Shown piece after piece: positions 1-27,857 of a stretch of DNA of 64,000 bases; the first letter of the stretch is position 1, and each line of letters opens with the position of its first letter. Below the pieces are notes generated by a model, which saw only the letters and a list, made by a program, of their open reading frames with translations, was not told the DNA's origin and ran no database searches. The DNA is from an uncultured Bacilli bacterium (lineage in GTDB: Bacteria > Bacillota_I > Bacilli_A > RF39 > UBA660). A program made the position numbers and the translations under genes. The DNA lies in contig CANQQR010000001.1 of the NCBI GenBank assembly GCA_947626035.1, positions 13,096-77,095 on the forward strand, in the 5' to 3' direction.

Positions 1-179
1 GAACTTTATCAAGAAAGATACCCTGATATGTCAGTTGCCCATCTAGGACACGCAAAAGCAGTCCTGAGTTTTCTGGAAAAGATAGTTTAAAAATGACGAG
101 AGGCGGGCTTCCCGCCCTCTCTTTCTTATGCTCAGCGCGTCTTCAGTCCAGACGCGCCGCAACTCATTATTTAGTAATA

Positions 180-211
180 CTGCACAAAAATTCTGGATCA
201 ATTTTGTGCAA
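180..211. promoter_or_regulatory. Palindromic operator-like site TGCACAAAA-N12-TTTTGTGCA; variants at 1014-1051, 1789-1825, 2854-2890 and 4490-4520
   Basis: Perfect 9-bp inverted repeat; recurs upstream of early cassettes next to a GCCTATTG motif and a TATACT-like -10. Confidence 0.5.
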
Positions 212-423
212 TTTGCCTATTGTAGTCTATCCCAGAATCTGCTATACTATAATTATTCCAAGGGAGAACCCACTGAGCCACAGGTCGAGTGTGGGGCGGC
301 GGTTGGAAGTCGCAATAGACAGTACTACCTTAGGGTATCCGCAAGGACGGAACGCACGTGGAATTAAGATACGAGATTGCGCATAGTATCGAAAATCTTC
401 CTTGGAAAAATTTTAAAAAAGTA

Positions 424-452
424 TTGACAAACAAAAGAAAAAATGCTATAAT
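424..452 (+). promoter_or_regulatory. Consensus sigma70-type promoter (TTGACA-17-TGcTATAAT) driving family-A paralog 504-923; near-identical copy at 4612-4640
   Basis: TTGACA at 424-429, TATAAT at 447-452, 17-nt spacer, extended -10 TG; conserved leader caaggtaagaaaaacaaaaa then AAGGAGG RBS. Confidence 0.6.
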
Positions 453-503
453 GTATTTACAAGGTAAGAAAAACAAAAAACAAATTTTAAGGAGGGTTTT
501 ACA

Positions 504-923
504 ATGGCAGACAAGAAAGTTACTAAGAAGGATCGTTACAATGTACTGATTGAGATGGTGCAGGCGTCGGAACTGGAGAATAAGGACGAGTACGTCGAAT
601 TCCTGAAGCATGAAATCGAGCTTTTGAGCAACCGCTCTAGCAAGTCCGGCTCTACCCCGATCCAGAAAGCAAACAATCGTCTGATTGCTCTGTTAAAGGA
701 TATCCTGGGCGAGCAGGAAAGTCCGGTGACTATCACCAACCTGATGGCAGATCCGCGTCTTGCAACCTACACGGTAGAGAAAGCTGACGGCGTTGTCACC
801 GAGGTTATGACCAACCAGAAGCTGTCCAGTCTGATGAAGAAGCTGGTGGACGCGCACGAGGTTGACAAGACCATCATCAAGAAGGTCGCGTATTTCTCTC
901 TGACCGCGGAGCTGGATGACTAA
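504..923 (+). CDS. Early protein, paralog family A (copy 1 of 3), unknown function
   Basis: Strong promoter and RBS; GC3-rich codon usage unlike flanks; paralogs 4695-5084 and 15462-15866 share motifs QKAN, DPRLATYT.EK, MTNQKL. Confidence 0.6.
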   Translation: MADKKVTKKDRYNVLIEMVQASELENKDEYVEFLKHEIELLSNRSSKSGSTPIQKANNRLIALLKDILGEQESPVTITNLMADPRLATYTVEKADGVVTEVMTNQKLSSLMKKLVDAHEVDKTIIKKVAYFSLTAELDD

Positions 924-934
924 TCCCCACTACT

Positions 935-961
935 GAGAGGGCGCAAGCCCTCTCTTTTTTA
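935..961 (+). terminator. Rho-independent terminator after 504-923
   Basis: GC hairpin gagagggcgcaagccctctc followed by a T-run; a second GC hairpin follows at ~965-1000. Confidence 0.55.
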
Positions 962-1113
962 TTTGGCGGTTCGCCATGGGGCGCGGCGAACCGAGTTTCA
1001 GAACTTAGTAATATTGCACAATTTTCGTGGATCAAGTTTGTGCAGTATGCCTATTGTATTTTCTCCTGAAATAGTGTATACTTAGACTATCAAATGAAAG
1101 AGAGGCAATTAAT

Positions 1114-1326
1114 ATGAAAATTGAAAACAAAGTAAAAAACACTGTGGAATTTCAGAACTTACACATCGGCGATGTCTTTATGTTTAATGCAAAGTATCTC
1201 ATGGTGACAGATACTGACCGCCTTGTTGTTGACTTAAGGGATGGTGCTTGCTATTATCCAGAGGATTTAGGTATTGATGGCTATGATGAAGTGCCTAAAG
1301 TTGAATGTACCTTATTGGTAGAATAA
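1114..1326 (+). CDS. Hypothetical small protein
   Basis: ORF with upstream operator-type promoter. Confidence 0.4.
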   Translation: MKIENKVKNTVEFQNLHIGDVFMFNAKYLMVTDTDRLVVDLRDGACYYPEDLGIDGYDEVPKVECTLLVE

Positions 1327-1337
1327 GGAGGGATGAT

Positions 1338-1712
1338 ATGCTTGCTTTTTACAATGCTGAGTATATTACATACCATAATGATAAAGAATTAGGACGGGAG
1401 TGGGCGAAGGGTTGCTGTGAAGAAAATGAACTTGATAATGAAATTATTGATATTTCATGGGATAATTTGACAGAGATGTATCGCCGCTATGGACTGGCTT
1501 TATATTTTAATTATATGAATCTTAAAAAAGGACGCATTGTATGTCCATTTGATAGCTTTAAAACTATTAAAGAATGGAAAGAACCATTAAATATTAGACT
1601 TGTAGCAAAATATGAGACAGAAGAACCTAAAATAATTGATGTATTAAAATGGCACGACCAAAAGCAAGCAATTCAATATTTGCAGGAAAGAAGTTTAAGT
1701 ATTCGGGGCTAG
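1338..1712 (+). CDS. Hypothetical protein
   Basis: ATG at 1338 preceded by AAGGAGGG RBS; terminator hairpins at 1718-1770. Confidence 0.45.
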   Translation: MLAFYNAEYITYHNDKELGREWAKGCCEENELDNEIIDISWDNLTEMYRRYGLALYFNYMNLKKGRIVCPFDSFKTIKEWKEPLNIRLVAKYETEEPKIIDVLKWHDQKQAIQYLQERSLSIRG

Positions 1713-1889
1713 AGCAATCTAGCCCTCTCTTTCTATGCTCGGCTCGCGATGCACCACCGCGAGCCGCAATTCTCTTTTTAGTAATGTTGCACAAAAATCT
1801 TGTGGCATTTTTGTTACTTTTGCCTATTGAGCTTTTTCCTTAAATAGTTTATACTAGTATCATCAAGAGAGAGAAAGAGAGGTAATGAA

Positions 1890-2060
1890 ATGAGACACCA
1901 CCTGCTGTATTTTAAAACAATTAAAGAATGGATTGACCTGTGGGAATATTCATTCTGGTATGAACGAATTGGAATTGTTATAGGGATTATACTTGATATA
2001 ATCTTATATGTGTTATTTATTATATTCTTTGCTATCGTTATTAAGGAGGTAATGAAATGA
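1890..2060 (+). CDS. Small hydrophobic membrane protein (57 aa), not in supplied ORF track
   Basis: ATG at 1890 after GAGAGG RBS; one predicted TM helix; stop overlaps start of next gene (ATGAAATGA). Confidence 0.35.
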   Translation: MRHHLLYFKTIKEWIDLWEYSFWYERIGIVIGIILDIILYVLFIIFFAIVIKEVMK

Positions 2061-2512
2061 AGGTTTTAGTCTTTGATATGGACGGTACAATCGCTGACCT
2101 GTACGGCGTTGAAGGTTGGTTAGAAGCTCTCAGAAGTTTCGATGAATCGCCCTATACCGACGCCCGCCCGCTTTATGATATGGAAAATCTCAATATGATA
2201 TTGCAGGCTCTTAAAAATCAGGGATGGCACATAGTGGTAACAAGCTGGTTATCAAAATGTAGCAATAAGGAATATGATAACAAGGTGCGGAAAGCAAAAA
2301 AAGACTGGCTCGATAGATATGAGTTCCCATACAATGAAATACATTTCATTAAGTATGGAACGACAAAAGCAAATTGTACTAGGAAGCTTGGCGGTCGCCA
2401 GATTTTAGTGGATGATAATGAAAAAGTACGGGCGGGCTGGACTCTTGGTGAAACAATCGACGCTAATGAAGATATAATAAGAGAATTAATAAATTTAATA
2501 AAGGAGGACTAA
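2057..2512 (+). CDS. HAD-superfamily phosphatase, 5'(3')-deoxyribonucleotidase-like
   Basis: N-terminal motif VFDMDGTIADL (HAD motif I, DxDGT); size and layout fit NT5C-type nucleotidases. Confidence 0.5.
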   Translation: MKVLVFDMDGTIADLYGVEGWLEALRSFDESPYTDARPLYDMENLNMILQALKNQGWHIVVTSWLSKCSNKEYDNKVRKAKKDWLDRYEFPYNEIHFIKYGTTKANCTRKLGGRQILVDDNEKVRAGWTLGETIDANEDIIRELINLIKED

Positions 2513-2515
2513 GAA

Positions 2516-2743
2516 ATGAAAGTAGTAGTAAGATTTGAAGGTAAGAGAGAGGTTGATATTCCAGACGCATGGCTGGAATATGATGCAATGGGTGAGGGTC
2601 ATCCGTACTATGCACCCTACGACCTACGAGATGATGCACCAGTTGTTATGGGCTCACATTCCATTCTATTACCGCCAGAATACGCAAATTTGGAGGTATG
2701 CGCAATCGAAGACCCGGACGGTAAGACAATTGCAGAGTGGTAG
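2516..2743 (+). CDS. Hypothetical small protein
   Basis: ORF with AGGAGG RBS; terminator 2744-2767. Confidence 0.4.
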   Translation: MKVVVRFEGKREVDIPDAWLEYDAMGEGHPYYAPYDLRDDAPVVMGSHSILLPPEYANLEVCAIEDPDGKTIAEW

Positions 2744-2767
2744 GAGCGCGGTTTCCGCGCTCTTTTT
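2744..2767 (+). terminator. Rho-independent terminator
   Basis: Hairpin gagcgcggtttccgcgctc plus T-run. Confidence 0.55.
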
Positions 2768-2996
2768 ACTTGGCGGTGCGTTTTGGCACAAAACGCACCG
2801 AGTCTCTAAATCTTCTATTGTACCACATTTTTCGCTCCCTGTCAATAGGCAAATTGCACAAACCTGGAGATCCCGATTTGTGCAATATTTTTGAAAAAAG
2901 TTCTTGACCTTTTTGTAGGTGTGTGATAGAATATACTTGTAAGGAAGATAACACCTTACATAAATAAAAAACCTATATGAAAGAAGGAATGAAAAC

Positions 2997-3974
2997 ATGA
3001 AAAAGAAGTACTACTTAACACTGGACACTGAAACCGCAACTTTACCTTTTGCTAACTCTATGTGTAAAACCGCAAAAGAGAAGCAGAAAATCGCTATCGC
3101 GAAACCGCTTGTATATGATATTGGATGGACTATAACCGATAGGGCAGGGAATGTTATAAGGAATGAAAACTACCTGATTCAGGAAACATTCTTTGTACCC
3201 AACGTATTCAATACCGCATATTATAAAGACAAAAGACCTATTTACATGAAGTTACTGGAGGAAGGAAAGATTAAAACCGCTTGCTGGAATGACATTATAA
3301 AGGTACTAATTAAAGATTTAGATAGTTGCGATTTAACCACCGCCTATAATGCCTGTTTTGATTTTAAGAAAGCTATTCCCTTTACAGAGCGATATATTTA
3401 TCATCTGTATCGCGCAGACTATAACGAGTGGGAAACAATGCAAAAGAGAATGTGTAAGAAAATCCTTGCGGGGCAGGATGAAAGCGAAAACCCGGACTAC
3501 TTAACGCCAGTATTCAAAATCCGCGGGCGCGAATATCCGATAGCTGATTTGTGGGGTATCTCATGTGAAAGACTTATCAACGCTAACAAGTACCGCGATT
3601 ATTGCTTACAGAATAGACTTCTTACGGCAAGCGCGTTATACTTCAAGACAAGCGCGGAAACTAGCTTTCAGTACCTTATGAAAAATCATGAATTTGTGGA
3701 AGATCATACGGCATTGAGTGACGCGCAAATCGAAGCACAAATTCTTACAAAAGCACTCAAGAAGGGCAAGGTAGAACCGCAGATAAATGCGTTCCCATTC
3801 CGCGACCTGGGCACAACTTATGAATACGTATTAAAAAAGCCCAAATATAAACAAGTGGTGATTGACCTACTGAATGAATATTATGAAGCTTATTCACTTG
3901 AGCATGGTCAAAACGCATGGATAACAAAAATCGAAAATATCTTGCGAACGTTAGAACATGGGGACGAGGGTTGA
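2997..3974 (+). CDS. DEDDh-type 3'-5' exonuclease (DnaQ/RNase T-like)
   Basis: Exo I motif LTLDTETA near N-terminus and Exo III-like HTALSDAQ motif; 325 aa. Confidence 0.5.
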   Translation: MKKKYYLTLDTETATLPFANSMCKTAKEKQKIAIAKPLVYDIGWTITDRAGNVIRNENYLIQETFFVPNVFNTAYYKDKRPIYMKLLEEGKIKTACWNDIIKVLIKDLDSCDLTTAYNACFDFKKAIPFTERYIYHLYRADYNEWETMQKRMCKKILAGQDESENPDYLTPVFKIRGREYPIADLWGISCERLINANKYRDYCLQNRLLTASALYFKTSAETSFQYLMKNHEFVEDHTALSDAQIEAQILTKALKKGKVEPQINAFPFRDLGTTYEYVLKKPKYKQVVIDLLNEYYEAYSLEHGQNAWITKIENILRTLEHGDEG

Positions 3975-4000
3975 AACCCTCTCCCCAAAGGAGGAAAAAC

Positions 4001-4375
4001 ATGACAAGAGAACAAGAGATACAACACCACATGAAGCAATTGAAAATTTCAAGAGAAGAAGCAGAACAGCTTTACAAGGATGATCACAGCGATACCGTGC
4101 TTCCAGAGGTTGCGGAAATGGAAGTAAAAGCAAAGAAAATGAAACGTAGGTATGAGGGTGATACTAAAGCGCGGGTTCCCGCTCAACGCGAAAAGAAGCT
4201 AGACCCTGTCAAAGTTGAGGTAATCCAAACGATCGCTAAGAACTTGACCAGATGCGTACTAGATGACAAGCTGGGCGAACCGCACGACATTGATATCGTG
4301 AACCCACAGCGTGAAGTTAAATTCAAGATTGGGTCAGTAAACTACTCGGTCACTCTGACCCGACACAAGGGATAG
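4001..4375 (+). CDS. Hypothetical protein, paralog of 5186-5593
   Basis: ATG at 4001 after AAAGGAGGAAAAAC; shares ...R(E/D)EA.Q...D and ...FKIG..Y..L(T/I)R(H/K)K C-terminal motifs with 5186-5593. Confidence 0.45.
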   Translation: MTREQEIQHHMKQLKISREEAEQLYKDDHSDTVLPEVAEMEVKAKKMKRRYEGDTKARVPAQREKKLDPVKVEVIQTIAKNLTRCVLDDKLGEPHDIDIVNPQREVKFKIGSVNYSVTLTRHKG

Positions 4376-4611
4376 GCGTAAGCCTATCCCTTTAAGCATC
4401 GGCCGGCACGCGATGAACCGCCGCGTGCCGAATCTTCCATTATACCATACCTTGGCAACTTTGTCAAGCGAAATTTTCAACAACTTTGCCCAAACTTTTA
4501 TCCCAAAATTTGTGCATTTTTACTCTTGTGCTTTCCGCGCCTATGTGATATACTAGTATCATCAAGAGAGAGAAAGAGATTTAAAAAGCCAAATAAAAAA
4601 TTAAAAAACTC

Positions 4612-4640
4612 TTGACAAACAAAAGATAAAGTGATATAAT
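4612..4640 (+). promoter_or_regulatory. Consensus promoter for family-A paralog 2
   Basis: TTGACA 4612-4617, TATAAT 4635-4640, same leader as 424-500. Confidence 0.6.
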
Positions 4641-4694
4641 AAAGCTACAAGGTAAGAAAAAACAAAAATAAATTTTTAAAGGAGGAATTAAGTT

Positions 4695-5084
4695 ATGACA
4701 AAGAAGGAAATGTTTGAAAAGGTAATTGCACTGGTGGAGTCCGCAGAAGTTGAGAACAAGGATGAAATTCTGGAGAAGCTTAACCATGAGGTGGATATGC
4801 TGAACAGTAGAAAGAGTTCGTCCAAACCTACCGCGGTTCAGAAGGCGAATGACGTCCTTATGAAGCTTGTTAAGGAGATCCTGGCGGAACAGGAGAATCC
4901 TGTGTCTGTAACTGAACTCATGCAAGATCCGCGCCTTGCTACGTATACCATTGAAAAGGAAGATGGCCCCTCGGTTCAGTATATGACGAACCAGAAGCTT
5001 ACCTCTATCCTGGGTAAACTGTGTGACGTTAAGGAGGTTGTGAAAACGGTAGAGAAAAAGAAGTCCTACTTCTCTATTGCCTAA
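4695..5084 (+). CDS. Early protein, paralog family A (copy 2)
   Basis: See 504-923; same promoter and leader architecture. Confidence 0.6.
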   Translation: MTKKEMFEKVIALVESAEVENKDEILEKLNHEVDMLNSRKSSSKPTAVQKANDVLMKLVKEILAEQENPVSVTELMQDPRLATYTIEKEDGPSVQYMTNQKLTSILGKLCDVKEVVKTVEKKKSYFSIA

Positions 5085-5185
5085 TGGGTGGGTGGGGTAT
5101 ATCCCTACCCACCTAAAATCAAAAATTTGATTTTAAAAAATTTTTTTGATATAATTATTATATCAAAAGAAAAGAGGGAATTAGC

Positions 5186-5593
5186 ATGACATATAAGCTA
5201 GGGAAACGCACAATCAGGATTCCAGATTCAGATATTGCGCGGTCGGTGGAAAAGTTAGGCATAACCAGAGATGAAGCAATCCAGATGTGGTTAGAGGATG
5301 AGGGATACCTGGAGAATGAAGAGCAAGAAGCCTTGGAGCGGAAAGCTAAAGAAAATCGCATAACCGCAACTATTCATCAGGCAAGCGCAGTCGATGTTCA
5401 AAAGAAAACTCAAAAGGAGAGAGTGAGAAAAGAAGATCCAACAAAGGAGCTAATTATAGCAAAAACCGCGGAATTTCTTAAAGAATATGCGGAAAATGTT
5501 ACAATAATTAACGTTGGAAAGCTGATTTCATTCAAAATTGGCGATGATGATTATGAATTTAACCTAATTCGCAAGAGAAAACCTAAAAAATAG
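5186..5593 (+). CDS. Hypothetical protein, paralog of 4001-4375
   Basis: ORF with GAGGGAATTAGC RBS; paralogy by shared motifs. Confidence 0.45.
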   Translation: MTYKLGKRTIRIPDSDIARSVEKLGITRDEAIQMWLEDEGYLENEEQEALERKAKENRITATIHQASAVDVQKKTQKERVRKEDPTKELIIAKTAEFLKEYAENVTIINVGKLISFKIGDDDYEFNLIRKRKPKK

Positions 5594-5647
5594 CACGGGC
5601 GGGCGCTAAAAAGCGCCCAAAACCTCGCAAAATGGAGGAAAATAACA

Positions 5648-5872
5648 ATGTATCATGTATTTATTGATGCTGGCGGTGAAGTGTTATGTAAAACTGTGGA
5701 TGATGCTATTGACTATGTAAGAAATTGGGTTAGTGAAAGAGGAGCCTTAAATAGTCTGACTTTTGACTTCTCTAACTGGGATATGAAATATATTGTTTTT
5801 CACATAGATCATGATGGTTATTATTGGCTAGGATGTATTGAGCTTTTACCTATTTGGAATAAGGAGGAATGA
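5648..5872 (+). CDS. Hypothetical small protein
   Basis: ORF with GGAGG RBS. Confidence 0.35.
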   Translation: MYHVFIDAGGEVLCKTVDDAIDYVRNWVSERGALNSLTFDFSNWDMKYIVFHIDHDGYYWLGCIELLPIWNKEE

Positions 5873-5875
5873 TAC

Positions 5876-6100
5876 ATGGATTTTATTTGGTATCTTAACT
5901 GGGAGAATGAATCAGTAGCATTTTCTACTAAAAAGCAGGCTATTGAATATGTAACTAAGAGAAGCGAAGATGCAGATTGGGGCTTGCAGTGGGATGAATC
6001 ATTGGAAGATTACATTAGTTTTATTTCAACTTGGTACGATGGTGGAGAAGAAACTTATGTTATTAAAGCTGTGCCATTCAATCCAGACCCGGAGAGCTAG
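5876..6100 (+). CDS. Hypothetical small protein, weakly similar to 5648-5872
   Basis: ORF coupled to upstream gene; terminator hairpin 6108-6140. Confidence 0.35.
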   Translation: MDFIWYLNWENESVAFSTKKQAIEYVTKRSEDADWGLQWDESLEDYISFISTWYDGGEETYVIKAVPFNPDPES

Positions 6101-6276
6101 ATTCGCCGGGTCCTGATCTGGCATCAGGACCCGCTTTCCGCATTTTCACCTAGCATATGCAATTTTTCCCTGGAATTTTTGATCCTCCCCATAGCGCGAT
6201 TCATCCCGAATCAATCTCACCCCTCAACACCTCGCAAGATCCACCTTACCTACCTACCTCTTCCCAACCTGACCCC

Positions 6277-6740
6277 ATAACGCCACAGACCCACAACCGC
6301 CGCTCTTATAGCAAAAAATTGGTTCCTCCCGCCCCATTTTTTTATTGCTCTAACTGAGTTATTTTAACACCAAACTGCTACATTATTAAGTTTACGAGTA
6401 TTTCTCCACATTTTATATAACTTGCTTCAGAGAAGCTCGTATAACGCCACAGACCTACAACCGCCGCCTATAGCAAAAAATAGACCTCTCCGCTAACTCT
6501 TTTATTATAGTCTAACTAAGTTAGCGTAAGCCTAAACTGCTACATTATAACATTTCCGAGTCTTTCTCCATTCGAAAATCTTCTTGCCTCAGGCGGGGTC
6601 CCTCGCCCTATGACGGCCACATACCCGCAAACCGCGTTTTCTAAGTCCCTCCCGCGGCTCTTTTATTATAGTCTAACTAAGTTAATTTAACCCCATTTTG
6701 CTACAAATATACCCCGACGAAACTTTGTAAGTCCAAATTT
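6277..6740. repeat. Approximately three tandem direct repeats of ~164 bp (iteron-like), non-coding
   Basis: Unit ataacgccacagacc(c/t)acaaccgccgc...ctaactaagtt...aaactgctacatta... starts at 6277 and 6441; a partial third copy lies at ~6615-6735. Confidence 0.6.
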
Positions 6741-8356: not shown

Positions 8357-8962
8357 TTAACACGCCGCTCTCTGAGGTCTATTAGTCACGCTCATAATCA
8401 CTATCTCTCTATGGTCAACATCAGTTTGAACCAACTTATACTCAATAAAATGCAATTCTTGAAGTACATATAAAATATTATTAATAACATGATTGTTACT
8501 TGTAGTGGTTGCCGCGATTCCAATAAAAGACTTCATTTGATTCATAGTAACAATAAAAGACTGTTCTTTATTAGCTATATATCTATTTAATAAATATACA
8601 TAAATACTAATAGTATATTGGCCTAAAGTATCTGTAAGCATTTCTAAAGTATCCAATGGTATCAATGCAGCATCTGCCTTATCAAGATAATTCAATCTGT
8701 AATACTTAGGTCTCACAGGATCTTCTTCAACCAAGCCAATCTTCAGCAAATCTTTAAACCTAGTAGAAGCAGTTTGTCTACTAATCTTCATCTTTTCACC
8801 AAGTGCTACATAATTAATTAATTTCTTTTCTACATACCTTCCGCCATCAAGTAATACTGACTCTTGCTGTAAAATTCCATAAAGTAAATCATTGTATTTC
8901 TTGTCAGCAGTATATTTTTTTGTATCAGGAATTTGTCTTGAATTACTCTGAATTGTTAGCAT
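8357..8962 (-). CDS. Putative DNA-binding protein (winged-helix-like)
   Basis: Segment ISRQTASTRFKDLLKIGLVEE resembles an HTH; function otherwise unknown. Confidence 0.35.
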   Translation of the reverse strand: MLTIQSNSRQIPDTKKYTADKKYNDLLYGILQQESVLLDGGRYVEKKLINYVALGEKMKISRQTASTRFKDLLKIGLVEEDPVRPKYYRLNYLDKADAALIPLDTLEMLTDTLGQYTISIYVYLLNRYIANKEQSFIVTMNQMKSFIGIAATTTSNNHVINNILYVLQELHFIEYKLVQTDVDHREIVIMSVTNRPQRAAC

Positions 8963-9164: not shown

Positions 9165-9764
9165 TTAAATATTAATATTCCACTCTGGTCGGAAAAGCTG
9201 TCTATAGTACGCTTCTCTATCAAATCTATTTACTTTATCGCATTTTTCAAGAATAGTAAAGTTGTCTTCTGTAAGAAAAGGTCTCTTCTGACAGTGCTGC
9301 TGGATCCGCTTGTCTAAATGTTCAGTAGATCCAACATACATAATCTTATTATTATAAATAATAGCATAAACATAATTAGTAGAATCATATTTTTTTACGT
9401 CTTTCTTTATAGAGCATAAAGATGTCCTAGATACCCCAATTAATTTACATATTTCGCTATCCGATTTTGCAGGGAATCTATTCTTACATATATGATAAGC
9501 TATATACACAGAGGAATCTTTAAATATATGATCTCTAATAAACTGTAACTCTTCTGTTGTCAAATCAAAGGGATCATTTACTATAATATTTTCATTGGAA
9601 TCTTCAGATATTATTTCATCATCAACCAACTCTTTATAATATTTAGCTAACGATTGTCTACATTTACCAACTATTTTTGATAAACTACTATAATTAATTT
9701 TTTTCATTGTATGCTGATGTAATAACAAAAATAAATATACATCATTGGTTAGTAAATACCACAT
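9165..9764 (-). CDS. HTH plus GIY-YIG nuclease-domain protein (free-standing homing-endonuclease-like)
   Basis: C-terminal YVYAIIYNNKIMYVGSTEHLDKRIQQH... matches the GIY-YIG core; N-terminal HTH-like segments; strong RBS TAAGGAGA before ATG at 9764. Confidence 0.5.
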   Translation of the reverse strand: MWYLLTNDVYLFLLLHQHTMKKINYSSLSKIVGKCRQSLAKYYKELVDDEIISEDSNENIIVNDPFDLTTEELQFIRDHIFKDSSVYIAYHICKNRFPAKSDSEICKLIGVSRTSLCSIKKDVKKYDSTNYVYAIIYNNKIMYVGSTEHLDKRIQQHCQKRPFLTEDNFTILEKCDKVNRFDREAYYRQLFRPEWNINI

Positions 9765-20293: not shown

Positions 20294-20367
20294 GGGACCT
20301 TGGCCTAATTGGTTAAGGCATCTGGCTCATAACCAGACGATTCTGGGTTCGAGTCCCAGGGGTCCCA
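20294..20367 (+). tRNA. tRNA-Met/Ile2 (anticodon CAT)
   Basis: Manual cloverleaf: acceptor gggacct/gggtccc, D stem gcct/aggc, anticodon stem tctgg/ccaga with loop ctCATaa, T arm ctgggTTCGAGTcccag. Confidence 0.7.
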
Positions 20368-20386
20368 CTCATAGGGAGGTGTTGAT

Positions 20387-20656
20387 ATGGGTAAATCTTA
20401 TAAAAAGAATCCTTATATCACCCAAGAAAAAGAAAATACTAAATTGCTTAACAGAAGAATAAGGTATGCGAAGCTCTATGAGTTTAATACTCCTGGGTCT
20501 TTTAAGCGTTTTTTCTCTAATTGGGGATACAAGAGTCTATGGACGAAAGAAGATGCAATTGCTTCGTATCTCAAACATCCTGAAAGATATGAAAAGAGTT
20601 TTCCCACGCTTGAAGATTGGCTTGAATACTGGCGGAGATGTGCTTATAGAAAATAG
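20387..20656 (+). CDS. Hypothetical basic protein
   Basis: ORF with GGGAGG RBS immediately after a tRNA. Confidence 0.4.
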   Translation: MGKSYKKNPYITQEKENTKLLNRRIRYAKLYEFNTPGSFKRFFSNWGYKSLWTKEDAIASYLKHPERYEKSFPTLEDWLEYWRRCAYRK

Positions 20657-20919
20657 CGTTTGGGCAAAGTTGATTAATTGATTTTAACAAAAATTTTTGA
20701 TATAATATTTATATGATAAGAAAGGAAAGATGAACAAACGGATCGTAGTAATCTTTCTGTAAATTTTTTCAGACCAGGATCCTCGTCCCTAGCGTGATAG
20801 CCTTGAGCTTCGCGCCAAGGCCGCCATGCGGAAAGGCTGTTAGGAAAAATACTTATCATTTGATTTTAAAAAAAATTTTTGTTATAATATATGTATAAGA
20901 AATAAAGAGGAGAAAACGT

Positions 20920-21120
20920 ATGAAGTCTTATTTTGTTGTGACTTTTGGTTGGGAAGGTCTTGCTAAAAGGCATAAGATGGTAGTCAAGTACTCCGATGAT
21001 TTAAAGCTTTGGTTCTGCTATGATGAAACAACCGAGACATACAGAGGTCCCATGTTTCACTCTTATAACGAACTGTATGACTGGATTAGTGACTATACAT
21101 TAATTCAAGAAGCTGGGTAA
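20920..21120 (+). CDS. Hypothetical small protein
   Basis: ORF behind consensus promoter 20860-20900. Confidence 0.35.
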   Translation: MKSYFVVTFGWEGLAKRHKMVVKYSDDLKLWFCYDETTETYRGPMFHSYNELYDWISDYTLIQEAG

Positions 21121-21452
21121 AAATGCTTCATTGATTTTTTAAAAATTTTATGATATAATATATTTATAAGATGAAAGAGTAAATAAAAAACATTTACTCT
21201 CATAGACACCTTTACAGCAAACACATTTTCACCCCTTTCAGAAAATGATGAATAATTAAGGAGGAAGTGGGATTCCCACATCCAGCAGGCGGTAGATTGA
21301 GTTGTTGAGTCACTTTGTATCCGCTGGTTTTACTTACTTACTAACTACTCACGGGTGTCTAGTGACTCCTGACCTGGCTATGGTGTAATGGCTACGAAGA
21401 AAAGTACAATGGGAGTAAGGAGGAATATACCAGTGAATACTCCTTAAAATCT

Positions 21453-21527
21453 TGGGATGTAGTTCAGTTGGTTGAGAATGTCGCTCTGATAAGGCGAAGA
21501 TCTTGGGTTCAAGTCCCGACGTCCCAA
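21453..21527 (+). tRNA. tRNA-Ile (anticodon GAT)
   Basis: Acceptor tgggatg/cgtccca, D stem gttc/gaat, anticodon stem tcgct/ggcga with loop ctGATaa, T arm ttgggTTCAAGTcccga. Confidence 0.65.
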
Positions 21528-21799
21528 CTAAGGAAGATGCGGTCCCTCTCATCCTATGGCAAAAACAGATGCGGGACATATTATATCAAACGGTAGTTTA
21601 ATAGGTTAGAACAACTTTGAGGTTGGTCCTGGTTCGATCCCAGGTCGTGCGATATAAAAACTTTCATTGACTTTTTAAAAAATTTTTGTTATAATATATA
21701 TGTAATCGGAAAAGCAAAGAATCATCTGAAGGTTCGGCGGTGACGTTCTGCCCTAAACGTAAAACCGAGAGTTCGCAGATCTTGATAAAACTGCGGTTT

Positions 21800-21873
21800 G
21801 GCTCCTTCCTCTAACTGGTTTAGGAGGTCTGCCCCTCACGCAGAGAATATGGGTCCGAGTCCCGTAGGAGTCA
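21800..21873 (+). tRNA. tRNA-Glu-like (anticodon CTC; loop cCCTCAc with C at position 33)
   Basis: Acceptor ggctcct/aggagtc, anticodon stem tctgc/gcaga, T arm atgggTCCGAGTcccgt. Confidence 0.5.
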
Positions 21874-22251
21874 CTAAGGCCCGATGGAGTCCTCACGAGT
21901 CCATCCGCACTAAGCAAAGCGTAAAAGTGCTAGAGGATGAGAAGAAAGATTGGAGGGTTCGATTCCCCCGCTGGCAAGTCTGCTGGTCCTGGGTGTGGTA
22001 ATCTGAAGAATCTCATGAGGTTTTGGATAAAGTAAACTTGGTTGCCGCCTTGTTGAAATTGGATGACCTAATCCTCGTTAGGAGCGGCGGCAACCGCTCT
22101 TAAGAGCCACTTCGACTACGTAGGTTAAGTCGCATCTCTCAATAGGAGAGGGATGAAAGTAAGGTGCAAGTCCTTACAGTGGTATTCGTGTCTTTTTAGA
22201 CACTTTGTCATACCTCTCTTAAAAAAATAAAGGCGGTCTTATGACCGTCAC

Positions 22252-22324
22252 GGTCCCTTCTTCTAAGTGGTCAGGAAGCTAGCCCTTCACGCTAGCAATG
22301 TGGGTCCGAACCCCGCAGGGATCA
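22252..22324 (+). tRNA. tRNA-Glu-like (anticodon TTC; loop cCTTCAc with C33)
   Basis: Acceptor ggtccct/agggatc, anticodon stem ctagc/gctag, T arm gtgggTCCGAACccccg; near-paralog of 21800-21873. Confidence 0.5.
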
Positions 22325-23603
22325 TTGAGTACTTATGTACTCATGAGGTGCGCTCTTGACACCTAAAACAGAGCTGCTTTGTTGGTTTATAAGCCAAAAT
22401 CAACCTCTAGCGGGAGTTCCGTAAGGTCTTTGGTCTTGTCACCGTTTAATTCCAAGACTGCGCTACTGGGTAATGGGATCCCGAAAACCGCGGGCGCTGC
22501 TAAAAACTGCGGAGATGTAGATACCAGTGCTACATAAACTTTGCTTGATATTCAGTTCACGTATCATAACAGATACGTAGGAATATTTGTCTTTCCCTCC
22601 GCTTTGCAGTTTTGGTAGTTTCTGTTTTCAAAAACTACCTATATTTTTCTCTATTGATTTTTAATAAAAATTTTGTTATAATATATACATAAGATAAAGA
22701 AAGAAAGATTTTGGCTGTGTCGTATATAGGTTAATACGTCAGATCATCTCTGAAGACTGAGGTTCAATTCCTCACATGGCTATTTACCGGTTTCGAGCAG
22801 GGTAGCTCCCCGTCAACCGGAAACCACTTACCATTCGGGATTTACGTTAGTAAGAATGGGAGTCCAAAGTACAAGGACTAAGCAAGAAGAATTTCTTGTG
22901 ATTTTCTATTAGAACGGTTTAACCATTTGGCTATCTGGGTTCAATTCCCAGAATAGCTACTCGTGGCTCGGCTGTATCCACGTAAAACATGAGCAGTTAT
23001 TGAGATCTCGACCGCGCACTCGGGCGGTATATAAGCTGACAGGGAGTTTTGATGGGTAAGAAAAATCTCGGAAAATATTGTAAAAATCCATTCGGGATTG
23101 TTGACAGAGGTAGCGACTGTCAGTGGCGTCTCGTGATAAAAGCCACGCGTGAAACTCCTTGGGGAAGTTGCAAATTCCTCATGTAGTCCTTGCTCACAAG
23201 GCGGTTATGCAACCGACTGAATGCTTCGGGACTGGCAGACTCCATGGTATGCTCGCTTGAGAGTGTCTGCTCGCTTAGTCAGAGCGTATAGGTGACAGCC
23301 ATATTGTAAGATGGTTATTTACTTACAACGTACTAGCAGATTTTAACTTCCTGTACGTTAAGCAGGTGGAGCATCAGAAGTATGTTTATAAGACTCCGTA
23401 GATACAGACCTACGTTAAAAAGGTGTCGCGCGGAACCCGACGCAAGTTCGAAATATCGGGCGGCTGTGATGGTAGCAATAGATAGTCGCGAATATCCCAC
23501 CCTTCGTACTGTGCGCGAGGTAAAACGAATCCACAGCGTAATAGTATAAACTTCTTAATACGTTAAGTTAAGTGAAGCCAGAAGTACGTTTTCAAGGCTA
23601 TAT

Positions 23604-23686
23604 GCACATGTGGTGGAATGGCATACACCTGGCACTTAAAATGCCACGGACTTTGGTCCATGCGAGTTCGAGTCTCGCCATGTGTA
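23604..23686 (+). tRNA. tRNA-Leu (anticodon TAA), type II with variable arm
   Basis: Acceptor gcacatg/catgtgt, anticodon stem tggca/tgcca with loop ctTAAaa, variable hairpin cggactttggtcc, T arm gcgagTTCGAGTctcgc. Confidence 0.65.
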
Positions 23687-23962
23687 TTGGGAGAGCATAG
23701 ACTCCTAGACATTCACAGGCTGATATACCCTGCAAAGTATACTCACTTGTCATGAACAGCGCGGTTGGTAGATGAAAATCCATGCAAGAGGAAAGAAGCG
23801 TCCCTATCAACTGCGCTCCTCTCTTTGAGCCTGTACCCGAATTGGCATAGGGACTTTTAAACTTAATAAATTCTTTAAAAATTTTGGGTACGATTAACAA
23901 ATCTTCTTCTTTTAATTTTTAAGTATTTATAGAAAATAAAACAATAAAGGAGAAGATTCGTT

Positions 23963-24706
23963 ATGGCTCAAAGATTAGATATATTAGATCGAAAAGAGGA
24001 CATTTTAAGATGGATTGAGGAAGGTCAACCTAAGACTTATATATGCAAGGAGTTGCAATGTAAGCAAAGTACCCTTAACAAGTATTTAGAAATTATGGGT
24101 ATTGAATATAAGGGTGTATCTGGATATAGAACTCCAGAAAGTAGAGAAAAATACAGTAACTATATTGATGCATTAACCTATATTCAAAGAGATAAAAGTG
24201 TTAAATCTAATACATTAAAGCAAAAATTATTTAGAGATGGTATAAAAGAATATAAATGTGAGTTATGTGGTTTAAATACATGGTTAGATGGGCCAATTCC
24301 TCTGGAACTTCATCATAAAGATGGAAATCACTATAATAATAATTTAGATAACTTACAAATTCTATGCCCTAACTGTCACGCATTACAACCTAATAATAGT
24401 GGCAAAGCGGTAAAGATTAAAGTTAAGGAAAAGGAAAAGAAAACAAAGCCTTGCCCTAATTGCGGAAAACCTATTGGGATAAAATCTAGGTTATGCACAG
24501 AATGTGTTCATAAAGAACAATATGTTTGCGATCATCCGTCAAGAGAAGAATTAAAGCAGATGATTAGAACTGTTCCTTTTGCCCAAATTGGTAGAAAATA
24601 TGGAGTAAGTGATAAAGCAATACCAAAATGGTGTATTAGTTATAATCTTCCAAGTAGAAAAAAAGATATAAATGGCATCTCAGACGAAGATTGGGAAAAA
24701 ATTTAA
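23963..24706 (+). CDS. HNH endonuclease with N-terminal HTH (homing-endonuclease-like, inside the tRNA array)
   Basis: ELHHKDGNHYNNNLDNLQILCPNCH HNH motif; additional CxxC pairs. Confidence 0.6.
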   Translation: MAQRLDILDRKEDILRWIEEGQPKTYICKELQCKQSTLNKYLEIMGIEYKGVSGYRTPESREKYSNYIDALTYIQRDKSVKSNTLKQKLFRDGIKEYKCELCGLNTWLDGPIPLELHHKDGNHYNNNLDNLQILCPNCHALQPNNSGKAVKIKVKEKEKKTKPCPNCGKPIGIKSRLCTECVHKEQYVCDHPSREELKQMIRTVPFAQIGRKYGVSDKAIPKWCISYNLPSRKKDINGISDEDWEKI

Positions 24707-24734
24707 TAGGTAGCTATGCTACCTACCTATCTAT

Positions 24735-24823
24735 GGAGCGGTATCCGAATTTGGCACAGGAGCGTGATTTAGGCTCACGTAGGCTGGATAGGCCGTCTAA
24801 GGGTTCGAATCCCTTCCGCTCTA
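24735..24823 (+). tRNA. tRNA-Leu (anticodon TAG), type II
   Basis: Acceptor ggagcgg/ccgctct, anticodon stem cgtga/tcacg with loop ttTAGgc, long variable arm, T arm aagggTTCGAATccctt. Confidence 0.65.
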
Positions 24824-24987
24824 CTGGTTTACTGAGGGTTCAAGTTCCTCTCGGCCTACTAAATGTGTGAGGTTTGGAATCCTCTTAACTCAACCGAGCA
24901 CCGCATTTAAGTACATTTTTCTTGCAAGAAAATTTATTATTAGATGTGTGGCCTTCTCACATACAGCATATAGGACTAGAAGGCATT

Positions 24988-25059
24988 TACGATATGGTGT
25001 AATAGGTAGCACGTTCTCATGTAGGGAGAAAAGTGAAGGTCCGAGTCCTTATATCGTAG
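24988..25059 (+). tRNA. tRNA-Tyr-like (anticodon GTA), short variable arm
   Basis: Acceptor tacgata/tatcgta (perfect), D stem gtgt/gcac, anticodon stem ttctc/gagaa with loop atGTAgg, T arm aaggTCCGAGTcctt. Confidence 0.5.
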
Positions 25060-25341
25060 TTTGGTGAAAAGATTTCTTGTCAGGGCCGGCTATTAAATTA
25101 GCATAACGACCCTGAGTCCTAGGGACAAGAGTTCTGACTAGCCATTTTAGGGCTGTAAGCTAACTTAGTAGAAGCGCATGCCTGAAGAGCAGGAGGACTT
25201 GGAGCGTAACCAAGATGGCCCATTAGGCGGACCCATGAACACATGAGCGTATATGTTCGCTAAGAAAGTCCTTATATCAGACAAAAGTAGAACAAAACTG
25301 ATAGGGTTTGACCTCAGAATCTACTAATGAGGTCAATATTT

Positions 25342-25427
25342 GACGGGATGGCAGAGCTGGTTTAATGCTCCACACTGCTAACGTGGCGATCCTCACGGGT
25401 CCGAAGGTTCGAATCCTTCTCCCGCCG
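25342..25427 (+). tRNA. tRNA-Ser-like (anticodon GCT), long variable arm
   Basis: Anticodon stem ccac/gtgg with loop ctGCTaa, T arm gaaggTTCGAATccttc; acceptor gacggga/tcccgcc has one A.C mismatch, so boundaries are tentative. Confidence 0.4.
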
Positions 25428-25468
25428 TCTGGACGTAACAGTCCAAGATTATAATAAGGAGCGGCGAA

Positions 25469-27361
25469 ATGAGAAAGAAACAAGTATGTGCGATGTTTCT
25501 CTCTACTAGCCTAACCATTATGCACGTTTGCGCGTGCCCTATGACAATTCTAGCTAATGAATGTTATGACGTTACAAGCTTTGAGGAGTTGCAAAATGCA
25601 ATAATGGAGGCTAATAATGGAGACATCATAAGAATTGTAACAAGAGAACCGCTAGAGATTTCAGATACAATAGATATAGATAAAGAATTAACTATCACTG
25701 GCGGAACTCTAACAAGAGCAGAAGACAAAACAATATTTAATGTAACTGGAGATTTAACCCTTGAAAGCATAAAGCTGCAAGGCACAAGAGAAGAGAAGAC
25801 TTGGACACATTCACCAGTAATTTGCGAAGGTAATCTAACATTGGAAGACAATGTTACGATTACTAATTTTATAGCAAGGCGCGGCGGTGGGTTATACGTC
25901 GCGGGCGGTGGTGATGTAGTTCTTAACCAAGGTTCAAGAATTATTAATAACGAGGTCCATGCAATCGATCGCTATAACATAAGCGATTCCGCGGTTGGTG
26001 GAGGTATTTTTATCGACTCAGGCGGCTCAGTGGAGTTAGAAGGCGGTATTATTGATGGTAATAAAGCTACTGTCGAGAATGCTTATGATCAGGTTGCGAT
26101 AGGCGGCGGTGTTGCTATCAAAGAAGGCGGACGCTTCGTTATGAATGGCGGCTATATTACAAACAATAGCGTCAGTGGATATTATGGAACTGCGGAAGGC
26201 GGCGGTATTGCCGCGGGAAGCGACCACTACTATCCATCATTCGAGGGTCTTGGTACTGTAAGTTCAGATGACTTACAACTTAACGCTGGAACCATAGCGT
26301 CTAATAGCGCAGTCCGCGGAGGTGGTATTTATTATCACTCTGGCGATACTTTATATCTTGCGGACGCCGCTATAACCGACAATGAAGCTAGGTTCGGCGG
26401 AGGTATCTGGTATTGCCAAGTAGGTTATGGGCAGCTGGGTACGTCGCTTCACTTAGGCGGCAACCGCGCGTCTCGATATGGTGATGACCTATACTCTGCC
26501 AATCCTTTTGGTATGTTTGATGGTTATGACTGTGCTTTTGAGATGTCGCTGCCAGATACGACAACGTGGTATGACGATTATACCAATAACAAAATAGAAG
26601 ACATAAATAGATATTTGTATGGCTACGCCATGATATGGTACTGGGGCGTAGCTGATGAAAACTTTACAACATGGCTTGATGAAAACTCTGATCTCAACTT
26701 TCCCCTTGATAGGGAATGGGAGGATCTAGCGCTGAAAGCTGAGAATGGCGTGGACAGTTGGTCACACGCGTTACAAATCAAGAACAATGTGGCGTCACAA
26801 GAAGGCGGTGGCATTGCTTGTAACGGTAGACTAGAAGCGCCAGATAAGGAAGTTCCGCCTCCTCCACCTCCGCCAGCTACTCCAAGTGAGCCTGAGAAGG
26901 AAACAGAGCCAGATATTCCAGTATCTACACCTAGTGAACCTGAAAGAGAAACAAGTACTGAAGAGACTACTGCACCTAGCACCGAGGAAACTACTGAAGA
27001 AGAAACTACTCCACCAACAGAAACAAGTAGTGAGGAATATACCGAACCTAGTATTGAGAAAGAAACCACACCTGCGGAGACAGTTCCTGAAGAGCCAGAG
27101 ACTCCGCCAGATGAGACAACGCCTGAACCTGTGACTCCCACAGAGCCGCAGCCCGCGCCTCCAATTGAGTATTTCCCAGATGAGCAAGTTCCATTAGGTA
27201 GTTTTGAAGCATTCGAGGATGAGGAAGTTCCACTCGCACCTTGGGAAGCACCTAGAACAAGTGATACTAATAAGGCTGCACAAGCTGGTTTCATAGCTTT
27301 GCTTGCTCTTGCTTCAATGACTCTGTTTGGTCATGAGATACGTAAACACAAAGATGATTAA
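25469..27361 (+). CDS. Secreted beta-helix repeat protein (polymorphic-membrane-protein-like GGG[IV] repeats) with Pro/Thr/Glu-rich linker and C-terminal hydrophobic anchor
   Basis: N-terminal signal-like segment; at least 7 repeats such as GGGLYVAGGG, GGGIFIDSGG, GGGVAIKEGG, GGGIYYHSG; PPPPPPATPSEPEKETEP... linker; C-terminal AGFIALLALASMTLFG plus KHKDD; higher GC than flanks. Confidence 0.55.
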   Translation: MRKKQVCAMFLSTSLTIMHVCACPMTILANECYDVTSFEELQNAIMEANNGDIIRIVTREPLEISDTIDIDKELTITGGTLTRAEDKTIFNVTGDLTLESIKLQGTREEKTWTHSPVICEGNLTLEDNVTITNFIARRGGGLYVAGGGDVVLNQGSRIINNEVHAIDRYNISDSAVGGGIFIDSGGSVELEGGIIDGNKATVENAYDQVAIGGGVAIKEGGRFVMNGGYITNNSVSGYYGTAEGGGIAAGSDHYYPSFEGLGTVSSDDLQLNAGTIASNSAVRGGGIYYHSGDTLYLADAAITDNEARFGGGIWYCQVGYGQLGTSLHLGGNRASRYGDDLYSANPFGMFDGYDCAFEMSLPDTTTWYDDYTNNKIEDINRYLYGYAMIWYWGVADENFTTWLDENSDLNFPLDREWEDLALKAENGVDSWSHALQIKNNVASQEGGGIACNGRLEAPDKEVPPPPPPPATPSEPEKETEPDIPVSTPSEPERETSTEETTAPSTEETTEEETTPPTETSSEEYTEPSIEKETTPAETVPEEPETPPDETTPEPVTPTEPQPAPPIEYFPDEQVPLGSFEAFEDEEVPLAPWEAPRTSDTNKAAQAGFIALLALASMTLFGHEIRKHKDD

Positions 27362-27431
27362 TTGATTTTTAATAAATTTTTTGTTATAATATATGTATAA
27401 GATAAAGAAAGAGTAAAAGGAGAAAAACAAA

Positions 27432-27746
27432 ATGTATAAATTCTACGTGACGGACAATAAGGTGATTTGTGTAACTACATATGCTGGCAAGACTGTGCGG
27501 GGCGTCGCTAAGTGTGATCCTAGAGATACTTTTGATGAAGAGTTTGGTAAGTCTCTTGCAAAGGCGAGAGCTGACTTTAAGGTAGCTAATAAGCGATATG
27601 ATAGAGCTATGGCTAAGCTGGATGAAGCTAGAGCCGCGAGTCGTAAAGCATATGATCGGGAAGAGGATATGTGGAACTATTTAGAAAGTGCGGAAGCGGA
27701 GTATAACAGAGCCTTAGAAATTATGGAAGCATATGATAATACTTAA
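27432..27746 (+). CDS. Hypothetical protein
   Basis: ORF behind consensus promoter 27362-27400; terminator hairpin gcggtcttatgaccgc 27746-27761. Confidence 0.45.
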   Translation: MYKFYVTDNKVICVTTYAGKTVRGVAKCDPRDTFDEEFGKSLAKARADFKVANKRYDRAMAKLDEARAASRKAYDREEDMWNYLESAEAEYNRALEIMEAYDNT

Positions 27747-27766
27747 GCGGTCTTATGACCGCGAGT

Positions 27767-27857
27767 GGAGGTGTAAGCCTAATTGGTAAGGCAGCGGTCT
27801 TGAAAACCGCTAGTAACCGCGATGAGCGGCGTCAGAGTTCAAGTCTCTGCGCCTCCG
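27767..27857 (+). tRNA. tRNA-Ser (anticodon TGA), type II
   Basis: Acceptor ggaggtg/cgcctcc, anticodon stem gcggt/accgc with loop ctTGAaa, variable arm ccgcgatgagcgg, T arm cagagTTCAAGTctctg. Confidence 0.7.

Follow-up and report, generated by a model that had tools for sequence, protein, structure and literature searches.

A recurring dyad at the early promoters of a large gut phage recurs in Clostridial chromosomes and may bind a conserved host factor

Introduction

How do the large, uncultured phages that infect gut Clostridia control their early promoters, and is the protein involved their own or that of the host? The question is raised by a stretch of 64,000 nucleotides (contig CANQQR010000001.1 of GenBank assembly GCA_947626035.1, positions 13,096–77,095 of the forward strand, filed under an uncultured Bacilli bacterium), hereafter the window, in the first 4.5 kb of which a palindromic element, here called the dyad, recurs. 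An initial annotation had read this element as the binding site of a dimeric regulator of an early regulon. To our knowledge, next to nothing is established about how such phages regulate transcription, and this holds equally for the TAG-recoding 'code 15' clade, to which the present genome has ties of descent.

Among the proteins encoded in the window are gyrase A and B, DnaB and PhoH, together with a radical-SAM enzyme and a CHAP/choline-binding lysin. Its only named relative is phage phAss-1, a 136-kb phage from the human gut that belongs to the 'Caudoviricetes code 15 clade'; the authors of that genome predict a Clostridia host, and promoters and palindromes are not mentioned in their paper. 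No description of the site was found in the searchable literature, in which the motif sequence retrieved primers and unrelated matches only and the topic of Clostridial early or divergent promoters led only to papers on pLS20 conjugation, a silence that is weak evidence of novelty.

A dyad confined to the early region

The dyad, TGCACAAA-N14-TTTGTGCA, spans 30 bp and occurs five times in the window (at 181, 1015, 1788, 2855 and 4487) when up to three mismatches are tolerated, against 0.03 occurrences expected from shuffled sequences. The recurrence is real, and the 9-bp arms with a 12-nt spacer reported initially are the same object as the 8-N14-8 arrangement, which describes the operator best. 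All five sites lie in gaps free of open reading frames (ORFs), and of the ten exact half-sites that the window contains, seven fall within its first 4.5 kb. A 42-bp position weight matrix (PWM) trained on relatives picked independently of the motif scored the five sites at 23.5–42.1 bits (Table 1), while the sixth-best position in the window reached -0.4 bits, more than 23 bits below the site scores, and shuffled sequences reached 10.8 bits at most. With its flanks, the operator reads approximately GnCAAAT-TGCACAAA-N14-TTTGTGCA-ATTTGnC.

Enrichment of the palindrome in intergenic DNA throughout the genome had been proposed as the test of its function, but this is not what characterizes the site, which is confined to one region despite strong sigma-A promoters elsewhere in the window. 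Among the 16 window promoters that match the consensus at 11 or more of 12 positions, the operator is found solely beside the ones in the first 4.5 kb. The complete genome of phAss-1 has five PWM matches of at least 12 bits, and every one of them lies within 126.7–134.9 kb, in the terminal block of small genes, and the operator therefore marks one region rather than all intergenic DNA. Moreover, a 17.75-kb ENA contig (L324) derives from the same phage as the window, with one mismatch in 7.5 kb, and reaches 9.5 kb to the left of it. This contig adds seven sites just upstream, mostly with a promoter at 9 bp, bringing the total to 12 sites in 8.6 kb; the window boundary cuts through the operator region.

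The small genes of this region had been described as moron-like cassettes, each with its own promoter and terminator. The latter statement is too strong, given that the 13 genes of positions 1–6.1 kb group into about six promoter-to-terminator units of one to three genes each. Nor does the comparison with morons hold, since the tandem units are syntenic across relatives, the corresponding block stands at the end of the 136-kb phAss-1 genome, and no integrase was seen in the region, which is a tandem early-gene array at the genome end of a large lytic-type phage.

The clustering of 12 copies near a genome end, where identical sites could nucleate a higher-order complex, might also be expected of partition sites, replication iterons or sites for nucleoid structuring or silencing, which would be intergenic merely because non-coding DNA is available there. 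Such a non-transcriptional role is hardly credible, as the one-turn phasing to the -35 hexamer and the two promoter classes described below are unexpected for partition or replication sites, and single copies are also found at ordinary chromosomal promoters.

Conservation and promoter geometry in relatives

An exact-pattern scan of IMG/VR returned at least 120 loci, all of which carry the motif by construction, and relatives were for this reason refetched through a profile of the neighbouring HAD phosphatase, without use of the motif. The profile was needed, as single-protein searches of IMG/VR with the 325-aa and 139-aa early proteins gave no match; a megablast of positions 1–6300 against GenBank phages gave none either. 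The resulting set comprises 80 loci (1.21 Mb), 61 of which contain at least one dyad site.

When spacers of 6–22 nt were compared in these relatives with up to two mismatches, N14 yielded 183 sites, N13 44 and every other spacer between 1 and 14. Positions that had not been selected for are conserved in the flanks, with A at -3 in 93 % of sites, C or A at -4, G at -6 and T at 0, and this conservation beyond the scored core extends each half-site to about 14 bp. In the 19 operator-negative relatives, a substitute palindrome was sought in order to exploit co-variation, and none recurs.

To place the dyad relative to promoters, 180 sites in the relatives were considered, and on either side of each the best sigma-A-like promoter that points away from the dyad was taken. 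The distance from the start of the -35 hexamer to the dyad falls into classes of 9–10 bp (n=98), 19–20 bp (n=77) and 30–31 bp (n=10), which together account for 185 of 207 promoters (22 lie elsewhere). These distances step by one helical turn without overlap with the core promoters, and with the 17-bp promoter spacer they place the dyad centre near -59.5/-60.5, -69.5/-70.5 and -80.5/-81.5. Promoters flank both sides at 53 of the 180 sites, and no recognizable promoter is present on either side at 26. The linkers are just 47–51 % identical in sequence and constant in length, which argues for constraint rather than mere common descent.

The two main classes differ in promoter quality. Those at 9–10 bp have the weaker -35 hexamers (TTGCAA, TTGACT, TTGTAT; on average 4.7 of 6 consensus positions), and an ORF with a Shine–Dalgarno sequence follows in 58 of 98 cases. 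Those at 19–20 bp have TTGACA in 65 and TATAAT in 64 of 77 cases, are joined to the dyad by an A/T-rich, UP-like linker and in 50 of 77 cases enter a GC hairpin directly, the onset of which lies a median of 8 nt after the -10 hexamer (interquartile range 7–9), that is, at the predicted transcription start. A T-rich tail follows in only 15 of 69 hairpin-starting RNAs, and most of these predicted RNAs should consequently be 5'-hairpin RNAs antisense to the preceding cassette. The consensus promoters that face the preceding cassette (2817–2845 and 4439–4467 in the window; L121–L200 among the relatives) probably yield such antisense RNAs in abundance. At the 32 sites with one promoter of each class, the spacer is directional, with aaTTTTCCCnaAA oriented toward the gene-driving promoter.

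The strict 14-bp spacing, the conserved unselected flanks and the helically phased -35 distances indirectly support the reading of the dyad as the site of a DNA-binding protein of symmetric form, at least a dimer, that is linked to a group of early promoters, and the dyad is very probably a protein operator. The original proposal of a dimeric regulator of an early regulon is supported in part; most of the regulators that were proposed with it are not, as discussed below. It has also been considered that no dedicated regulator exists and that RNA polymerase itself reads the dyad as a UP-element-like or bent DNA, symmetric so as to serve divergent promoters. The A/T-rich surroundings of the arms, the location of the site in the UP-element zone of the 9-bp-class promoters, the A/T tracts that form the 19–20-bp linkers and the helically phased -35 spacing would suit such a model. 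UP elements, however, have neither an invariant core with G and C, such as the GCAC seen here, nor a strict arm spacing, a recognizable promoter is absent from both sides at 26 of 180 sites, and chromosomal sites lie at variable promoter distances, all of which makes direct recognition by the polymerase very unlikely.

The same site in Clostridial chromosomes and unrelated phages

The site is not restricted to this phage family. An 18-nt pattern scanned against a genome collection returned at least 119 loci, against a chance expectation that we estimate at about nine in 596 Gb at equal base frequencies and at a few-fold more in AT-rich DNA. Among the 80 matches listed, 71 are from Clostridia and fall in the Oscillospiraceae, the Acutalibacteraceae, Ruminococcus and the Lachnospiraceae; R. 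bromii ATCC 27255, Hungatella hathewayi DSM 13479 and A. neopropionicum are among them. Early genes of the present phage are found in just two of the at least 119 loci, and a homologue of the early phage proteins p139 or p135, introduced below, in just one (L241). The chromosomal sites have the same flank bias as the phage sites, though less strongly (T at -8, G at -6, C at -4, A at -3).

In about 14 species, the dyad lies 6–7 bp from a consensus promoter (TTGAC[AT]-17-TATAAT) of a conserved ORF of 42–49 aa (loci L206, L218, L232, L250, L258, L267, L269, L277, L286, L289, L291, L304 and L309; the ORF was not called in L267 and L286). This ORF adjoins ylmC-like genes in L206, L304 and L309 and in L269 directly precedes spoIIGA-like genes. 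ORFs of this kind match no Pfam family, and their assignment as Spo0E-like is accordingly unsupported. In a second group of 12 loci (among them L219, L221, L253, L254, L263, L299, L302 and L303), a TetR-family gene begins 11–20 nt from the dyad, mostly at 20 nt; the flank differs (TTTGTAnnnT), the palindrome extends outward (TTTGTAnnnTTGCACAAA...), and in 8 of the 12 loci the TetR gene is divergent from a 494-aa aminotransferase-like gene. TetR was rejected as the binder of the phage sites, as no TetR-like ORF is present in the window, the complete phAss-1 genome or 204 viral loci, which comprise all viral DNA scanned. Smaller chromosomal groups lie upstream of genes for extracytoplasmic function (ECF)-sigma-like factors and ABC transporters.

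Similarly, 85 of the at least 120 motif-selected IMG/VR loci lack the genes of this phage family; genes for Xre-type and ribbon-helix-helix-like regulators, integrases and terminases are among the neighbours. The 79 sites in these loci have A at -3 in 80 % of cases and the same 9–10, 19–20 and 30 bp geometry. The central 10 nt of the spacer recur in the flanks of 17 of 115 viral sites, against five in shuffled controls, as a phage-specific 10–12-mer with two to four flanking copies (IMG/VR loci L009, L010, L020, L022, L024, L034, L041, L057 and L086; genome loci L207 and L287), and this looks like a phage-specific element nested inside constant arms.

Unrelated phages and Clostridial chromosomes thus carry identical arms with a shared flank signature. 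This favours a host factor, since a binder common to all of them would most simply be a host protein. The interpretation that we put forward is that the dyad is an operator upstream of early promoters that is bound by a conserved Clostridial factor of the host, and to this reading, and to the host origin of the binder in particular, we give about even credence. A wider version, which is tentative, holds that a global protein of the gut Clostridia (Oscillospirales/Lachnospirales) binds the arms and controls chromosomal promoters, including that of the small ORF, and that lytic and temperate phages of many unrelated kinds have co-opted the site, in early promoters or genetic switches, as a sensor of host state that gates early expression, with some phages nesting their own elements in the 14-bp spacer.

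Several points weigh against the host-factor interpretation. The window promoters are consensus calls made from the sequence; the genome and viral scans demanded exact cores and returned minimum counts, and their samples are biased; and the sites of the relatives share ancestry, so that their counts are not independent events. The chromosomal sites do not show the strict 9–10 and 19–20 bp geometry, and the 12 TetR-adjacent sites may belong to that TetR itself. In addition, a site at -60 could repress instead of activating, and the binder could be the early winged-helix protein, presumably strongly expressed, of which the phage has two to three copies.

Phage-encoded candidate proteins

Three protein families recur beside the sites in the 80 relatives: a 325-aa protein (76 loci), the p139/p129 family (72) and the p124b/p135 family (66). 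The second of these provides the phage-encoded candidates for the binder, namely p139, p129 and the distant paralogue at 57563–57934, which is the one regulator proposed in the initial annotation that survives as a lead. Of the other two, the protein at 8357–8962 is not conserved in operator-bearing relatives, and that at 55347–55622 has a homologue in phAss-1.

If p139 and its paralogues were the binder, immediate-early consensus promoters would supply a dimer that binds the dyads and either activates the weaker promoters of the 9-bp class, in a delayed-early cascade, or shuts the early region. The p139/p129 family is present at about two copies per early region and also in phAss-1, and in the window its genes lie downstream of sites 1 and 5, behind tandem promoters. 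The AlphaFold2 (AF2) model of p139 (mean predicted local distance difference test score, pLDDT, 86) comprises three helices and a winged helix and matches the folds of ArsR/SmtB, HxlR, MarR and MecI regulators, and profile searches with the family give weak winged-helix matches. Residues N104 and Q105 of the recognition helix and T51, Q54 and N57 of a basic segment are invariant. The family is huge, with more than 5,400 unnamed proteins, and is found only in metagenomic phage-like contigs. On the other hand, the fold E-values are weak (0.02–0.2), as is the enrichment of the recognition-helix motif NQ[KR] in operator-positive loci (66 of 123, against 3 of 12 others). In the DNA fetched, the operator occurs without a p139-family gene in 85 viral and 117 genome loci, and it also occurs at conserved promoters in chromosomes, which cannot have a phage protein as their regular ligand. 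A phage-encoded binder, the main rival of the host factor, is thus regarded as unlikely, if by no means fanciful; whatever credence is left over from it and from the host factor falls to the other options.

The p124b/p135 proteins form a second paralogous early family (4001–4375 and 5186–5593 in the window), with a UBA-like N-terminus, a conserved KERKxDxEK segment and a C-terminal beta region. The p135 family tracks the presence of the operator best (56 of 61 operator-positive against 9 of 19 operator-negative relatives); searches of PDB and Pfam with the p135/p124b profiles gave only the UBA-like N-terminal match and no DNA-binding signature.

Proposed mechanism and parallels with known systems

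Returning to the host-factor interpretation, the operator sits upstream of sigma-A-type early promoters in a fixed helical register and is often common to two divergent promoters. A symmetric protein would contact, on a single face of the DNA, two major grooves separated by two helical turns and, once bound, would influence RNA polymerase from upstream as class-I activators or modulators do; the upstream, helically phased position suggests an effect on polymerase recruitment rather than promoter occlusion. Its chief targets would be the promoters 9–10 bp away, with weak -35 hexamers, that drive the early genes. The opposite promoter, usually 19–20 bp off and of consensus -35 and -10 sequence, would launch a GC-hairpin RNA that is mostly antisense to the preceding cassette. 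The protein itself would most likely be a conserved host factor of gut Clostridia, to which many phages have coupled their early promoters, and not a regulator peculiar to this phage.

A close parallel is phage phi29, in which the small dimeric protein p4 acts on RNA polymerase at sites of the A2c/A2b/A3 early–late switch. In both systems, divergent promoters enclose short inverted repeats that are spaced by some two helical turns and lie upstream of a poor -35 hexamer; repeats about 22 bp centre to centre between divergent promoters are found at sites 4 and 5 of the window and at 53 of 180 sites in the relatives. The arm sequence is different, however, and there are 12 copies per genome here against a single switch in phi29, the core promoter is never overlapped, the site is also found in unrelated phages and host chromosomes, and p139 is a predicted winged-helix protein. 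No member of the p4 family was detected when the early proteins were compared with Pfam and PHROG. The stepping of distances recalls class I activation by E. coli CRP, which operates from sites at -61.5, -71.5 and -82.5 (TGTGA-N6-TCACA). The operator centres near -60, -70 and -81 likewise advance in one-turn steps, with the weakest -35 hexamers in the -60 class, but the half-sites and the 14-bp spacer are unlike those of CRP, the host is Gram-positive, and activation here would be by analogy.

Host binding sites within phage control regions are known from the Spo0A boxes of phi29-like phages and the LexA boxes of prophage switches. If the binder is a host factor, the dyad would be a further case of a host site placed within phage early or switch promoters, and one chromosomal copy is near spoIIGA-like genes. 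The half-site TTTGTGCAA differs from the 0A box TTTGTCGAA in two central bases, and the Spo0A box was rejected on this account (arms TGTGCAA against a TGTCGAA core); the arms are also unlike the Firmicute LexA box GAAC-N4-GTTC. By-eye comparison with consensus sequences gave no fit to sigma-B or sigma-I promoter elements, to DnaA boxes or to CIRCE, Rex or LexA sites, nor did the spacer fit a CodY box.

Widely spaced dyad operators bound through distant DNA-binding domains are known for AimR of the arbitrium phages and for BirA at bioO. As in those systems, arms of 6–9 bp lie more than one helical turn apart, which implies a large dimer or a dimer of dimers. The sequences differ, those operators are single sites, and no protein with tetratricopeptide repeats and a helix-turn-helix, or resembling BirA, was found here. 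Finally, the terminal-redundancy module of SPO1 is an array of host-takeover and early-gene cassettes in a large Firmicute phage, and it resembles the present array in its many small genes at the genome end, arranged in short units with a strong sigma-A promoter and a terminator. Arrays of the SPO1 type are not known to have a shared dyad operator or a convergent hairpin-RNA promoter.

The operator offers a sequence-defined handle on this regulation, and a 42-bp probe could be used to capture the regulator. It appears to mark the early regulon in hundreds of metagenomic phage genomes, and if its binder is a host protein, it would tie early expression in many phage families to the physiology of the host. 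The consensus promoters of the pairs and their predicted 5'-hairpin antisense RNAs form a potential second layer that is worth mapping.

Organization of the cassette modules

In each module, the terminator of the preceding cassette (hairpin 1) is followed by a second hairpin, the dyad, a 9-nt linker, the -35 hexamer, a 17-nt spacer and TATACT (Table 1). Hairpin 2 is GC-rich and lacks a T-run, with folding energies of -13 to -19 kcal/mol (z -2.6 to -4.5), and the module -35 hexamer retains little beyond TTG. The terminator at 4367–4392 was read from the sequence and is also the second helix of the predicted fold. The box noted initially beside the sites in both orientations is GCCTATTG, of which four copies, one inverted, adjoin sites 1–4 and a fifth, at 41046, is unrelated; the box is made up of the 9-nt linker and the TTG that opens the -35 hexamer.

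Table 1. Coordinates of operator sites, predicted promoters, hairpins and the candidate binder in the window
Feature	Position	Strand	Details
Operator site 1	181–210		perfect dyad, 0 mismatches; extended ~175–216; PWM 42.1 bits
Operator site 2	1015–1044		PWM 34.8 bits
Operator site 3	1788–1817		degenerate right arm; PWM 23.5 bits
Operator site 4	2855–2884		flanked by divergent promoters; PWM 35.0 bits
Operator site 5	4487–4516		flanked by divergent promoters; degenerate left arm; PWM 29.5 bits
Predicted promoter 9 bp from site 1	220–248	+	TTGTAG-17-TATACT; read from sequence, in register in repeat family D1
Predicted promoter 9 bp from site 2	1054–1082	+	TTGTAT-17-TATACT; would drive 1114–1326, 1338–1712
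Predicted promoter 9 bp from site 3	1827–1855	+	TTGAGC-17-TATACT; would drive 1890–2060, 2057–2512 (HAD), 2516–2743
Predicted promoter 9 bp left of site 4	2817–2845	-	TTGACA-17-TACAAT, 11/12 match; antisense to gene 2516–2743
Predicted promoter 19 bp right of site 4	2904–2932	+	TTGACC-17-TAGAAT; would drive 2997–3974, 4001–4375
Predicted promoter 19 bp left of site 5	4439–4467	-	TTGACA-17-TATAAT, 12/12 match; enters hairpin 2, then hairpin 1
Predicted promoter 9 bp right of site 5	4526–4554	+	TTGTGC-17-TATACT; then duplicated leader 4549–4584 (D3)
Predicted promoter of winged-helix gene 504–923	424–452	+	12/12 consensus; repeat D2
Predicted paralogous promoter of gene 4695–5084	4612–4640	+	12/12 consensus; repeat D2
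Hairpin 1, terminator of upstream cassette	102–116	+	equivalents 935–954, 1705–1726, 2742–2764, 4367–4392
Hairpin 2, module 1	135–157		between upstream terminator and operator; -13.4 kcal/mol, z -3.7
Hairpin 2, module 2	967–993		-17.1 kcal/mol, z -2.6
Hairpin 2, module 3	1740–1766		-17.8 kcal/mol, z -3.7
Hairpin 2, module 4	2774–2800		-18.7 kcal/mol, z -4.5
Hairpin 2, module 5	4404–4430		-18.2 kcal/mol, z -2.7
p139, early winged-helix protein, candidate binder	504–923	+	AF2 pLDDT 86; paralogues 4695–5084 (p129), 57563–57934 (distant)

Sites 1–3 are oriented rightward, toward the genes, and sites 4 and 5 lie between divergent promoters, the leftward members of which would be transcribed through hairpin 2, the upstream terminator in reverse and the 3' end of the preceding gene. 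The predicted leftward RNAs fold at z -5.6 (site 4) and -5.3 (site 5).

The resemblance among the modules suggests that the repeats might be paralogous copies of one promoter module, within which the palindrome has no function. Modules 1–3 are 68–74 % identical to one another over 85 nt, and duplication of cassettes is evident. The duplicated promoter-leader of the initial annotation is recovered at 1850–1885 and 4549–4584 (94 % identical), and a second duplication joins 407–488 with 4595–4676 (83 % identical, D2). This explanation is disfavoured nearly to the point of dismissal, as the arms and their spacing are fixed across relatives, unrelated phages and chromosomes, while the spacer, linkers and neighbouring genes diverge. 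The leaders after the -10 hexamer (e.g. 453–480, 1856–1885, 2933–2960, 4555–4584 and 4641–4670) share a purine-rich motif, ACAAGGTAAGAAAAA, CAAGAGAGAGAAAGAG or TGTAAGGAAGATAACA, which in the relatives reads gtatttacaaggtaaggaaagagagg.

The predicted promoter at site 1 points toward gene 504–923 and drives, by prediction, an ORF-free structured transcript of 160 nt (253–412, forward strand) that folds at z -3.1. This RNA is conserved in three phages, with compensatory changes in 8 of 37 pairs, and its homologues (L179/L180/L184 and L189/L190) share the invariant core CUGAGCCACA...GUGUGGGGC..CGGUUGGAAGU.GCAAUAGAC...GGAACGCACG, which makes it a candidate new structured RNA. Neither it nor the hairpin RNAs match an Rfam covariance model above threshold, the only sub-threshold matches being ctRNA_pND324 and BSnc120. 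The ctRNA_pND324 match lies at 5085–5165 (forward strand; 36.5 bits against a gathering score of 45, E 0.009), in the gap between terminator and promoter after gene 4695–5084, and is probably an artefact of a hairpin plus AT-rich sequence.

Other features of the window

A cluster of tRNA genes extends from 20294 to 30701, with 16 genes called by ARAGORN and 17 matches in Rfam. Although phAss-1 belongs to a TAG-recoding clade, no CTA suppressor tRNA is among these calls; an odd tRNA at 30630–30701 received a two-base anticodon call from ARAGORN. Right after the early cassettes, at 6270–6710, three direct repeats of about 162 nt lie within a 700-nt ORF-free, C-rich stretch; their conserved blocks are ATAACGCCACAGACC.ACAACCGCCGC and CTCTTTTATTATAGTCTAACTAAGTTA, and they may represent an origin, small RNA genes or a repeat boundary. 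Just past the early region, on the opposite strand, the ORF at 9165–9764 encodes a protein with a C-terminal GIY-YIG nuclease domain (Pfam E 2e-8) and looks like a gene of the homing-endonuclease type.

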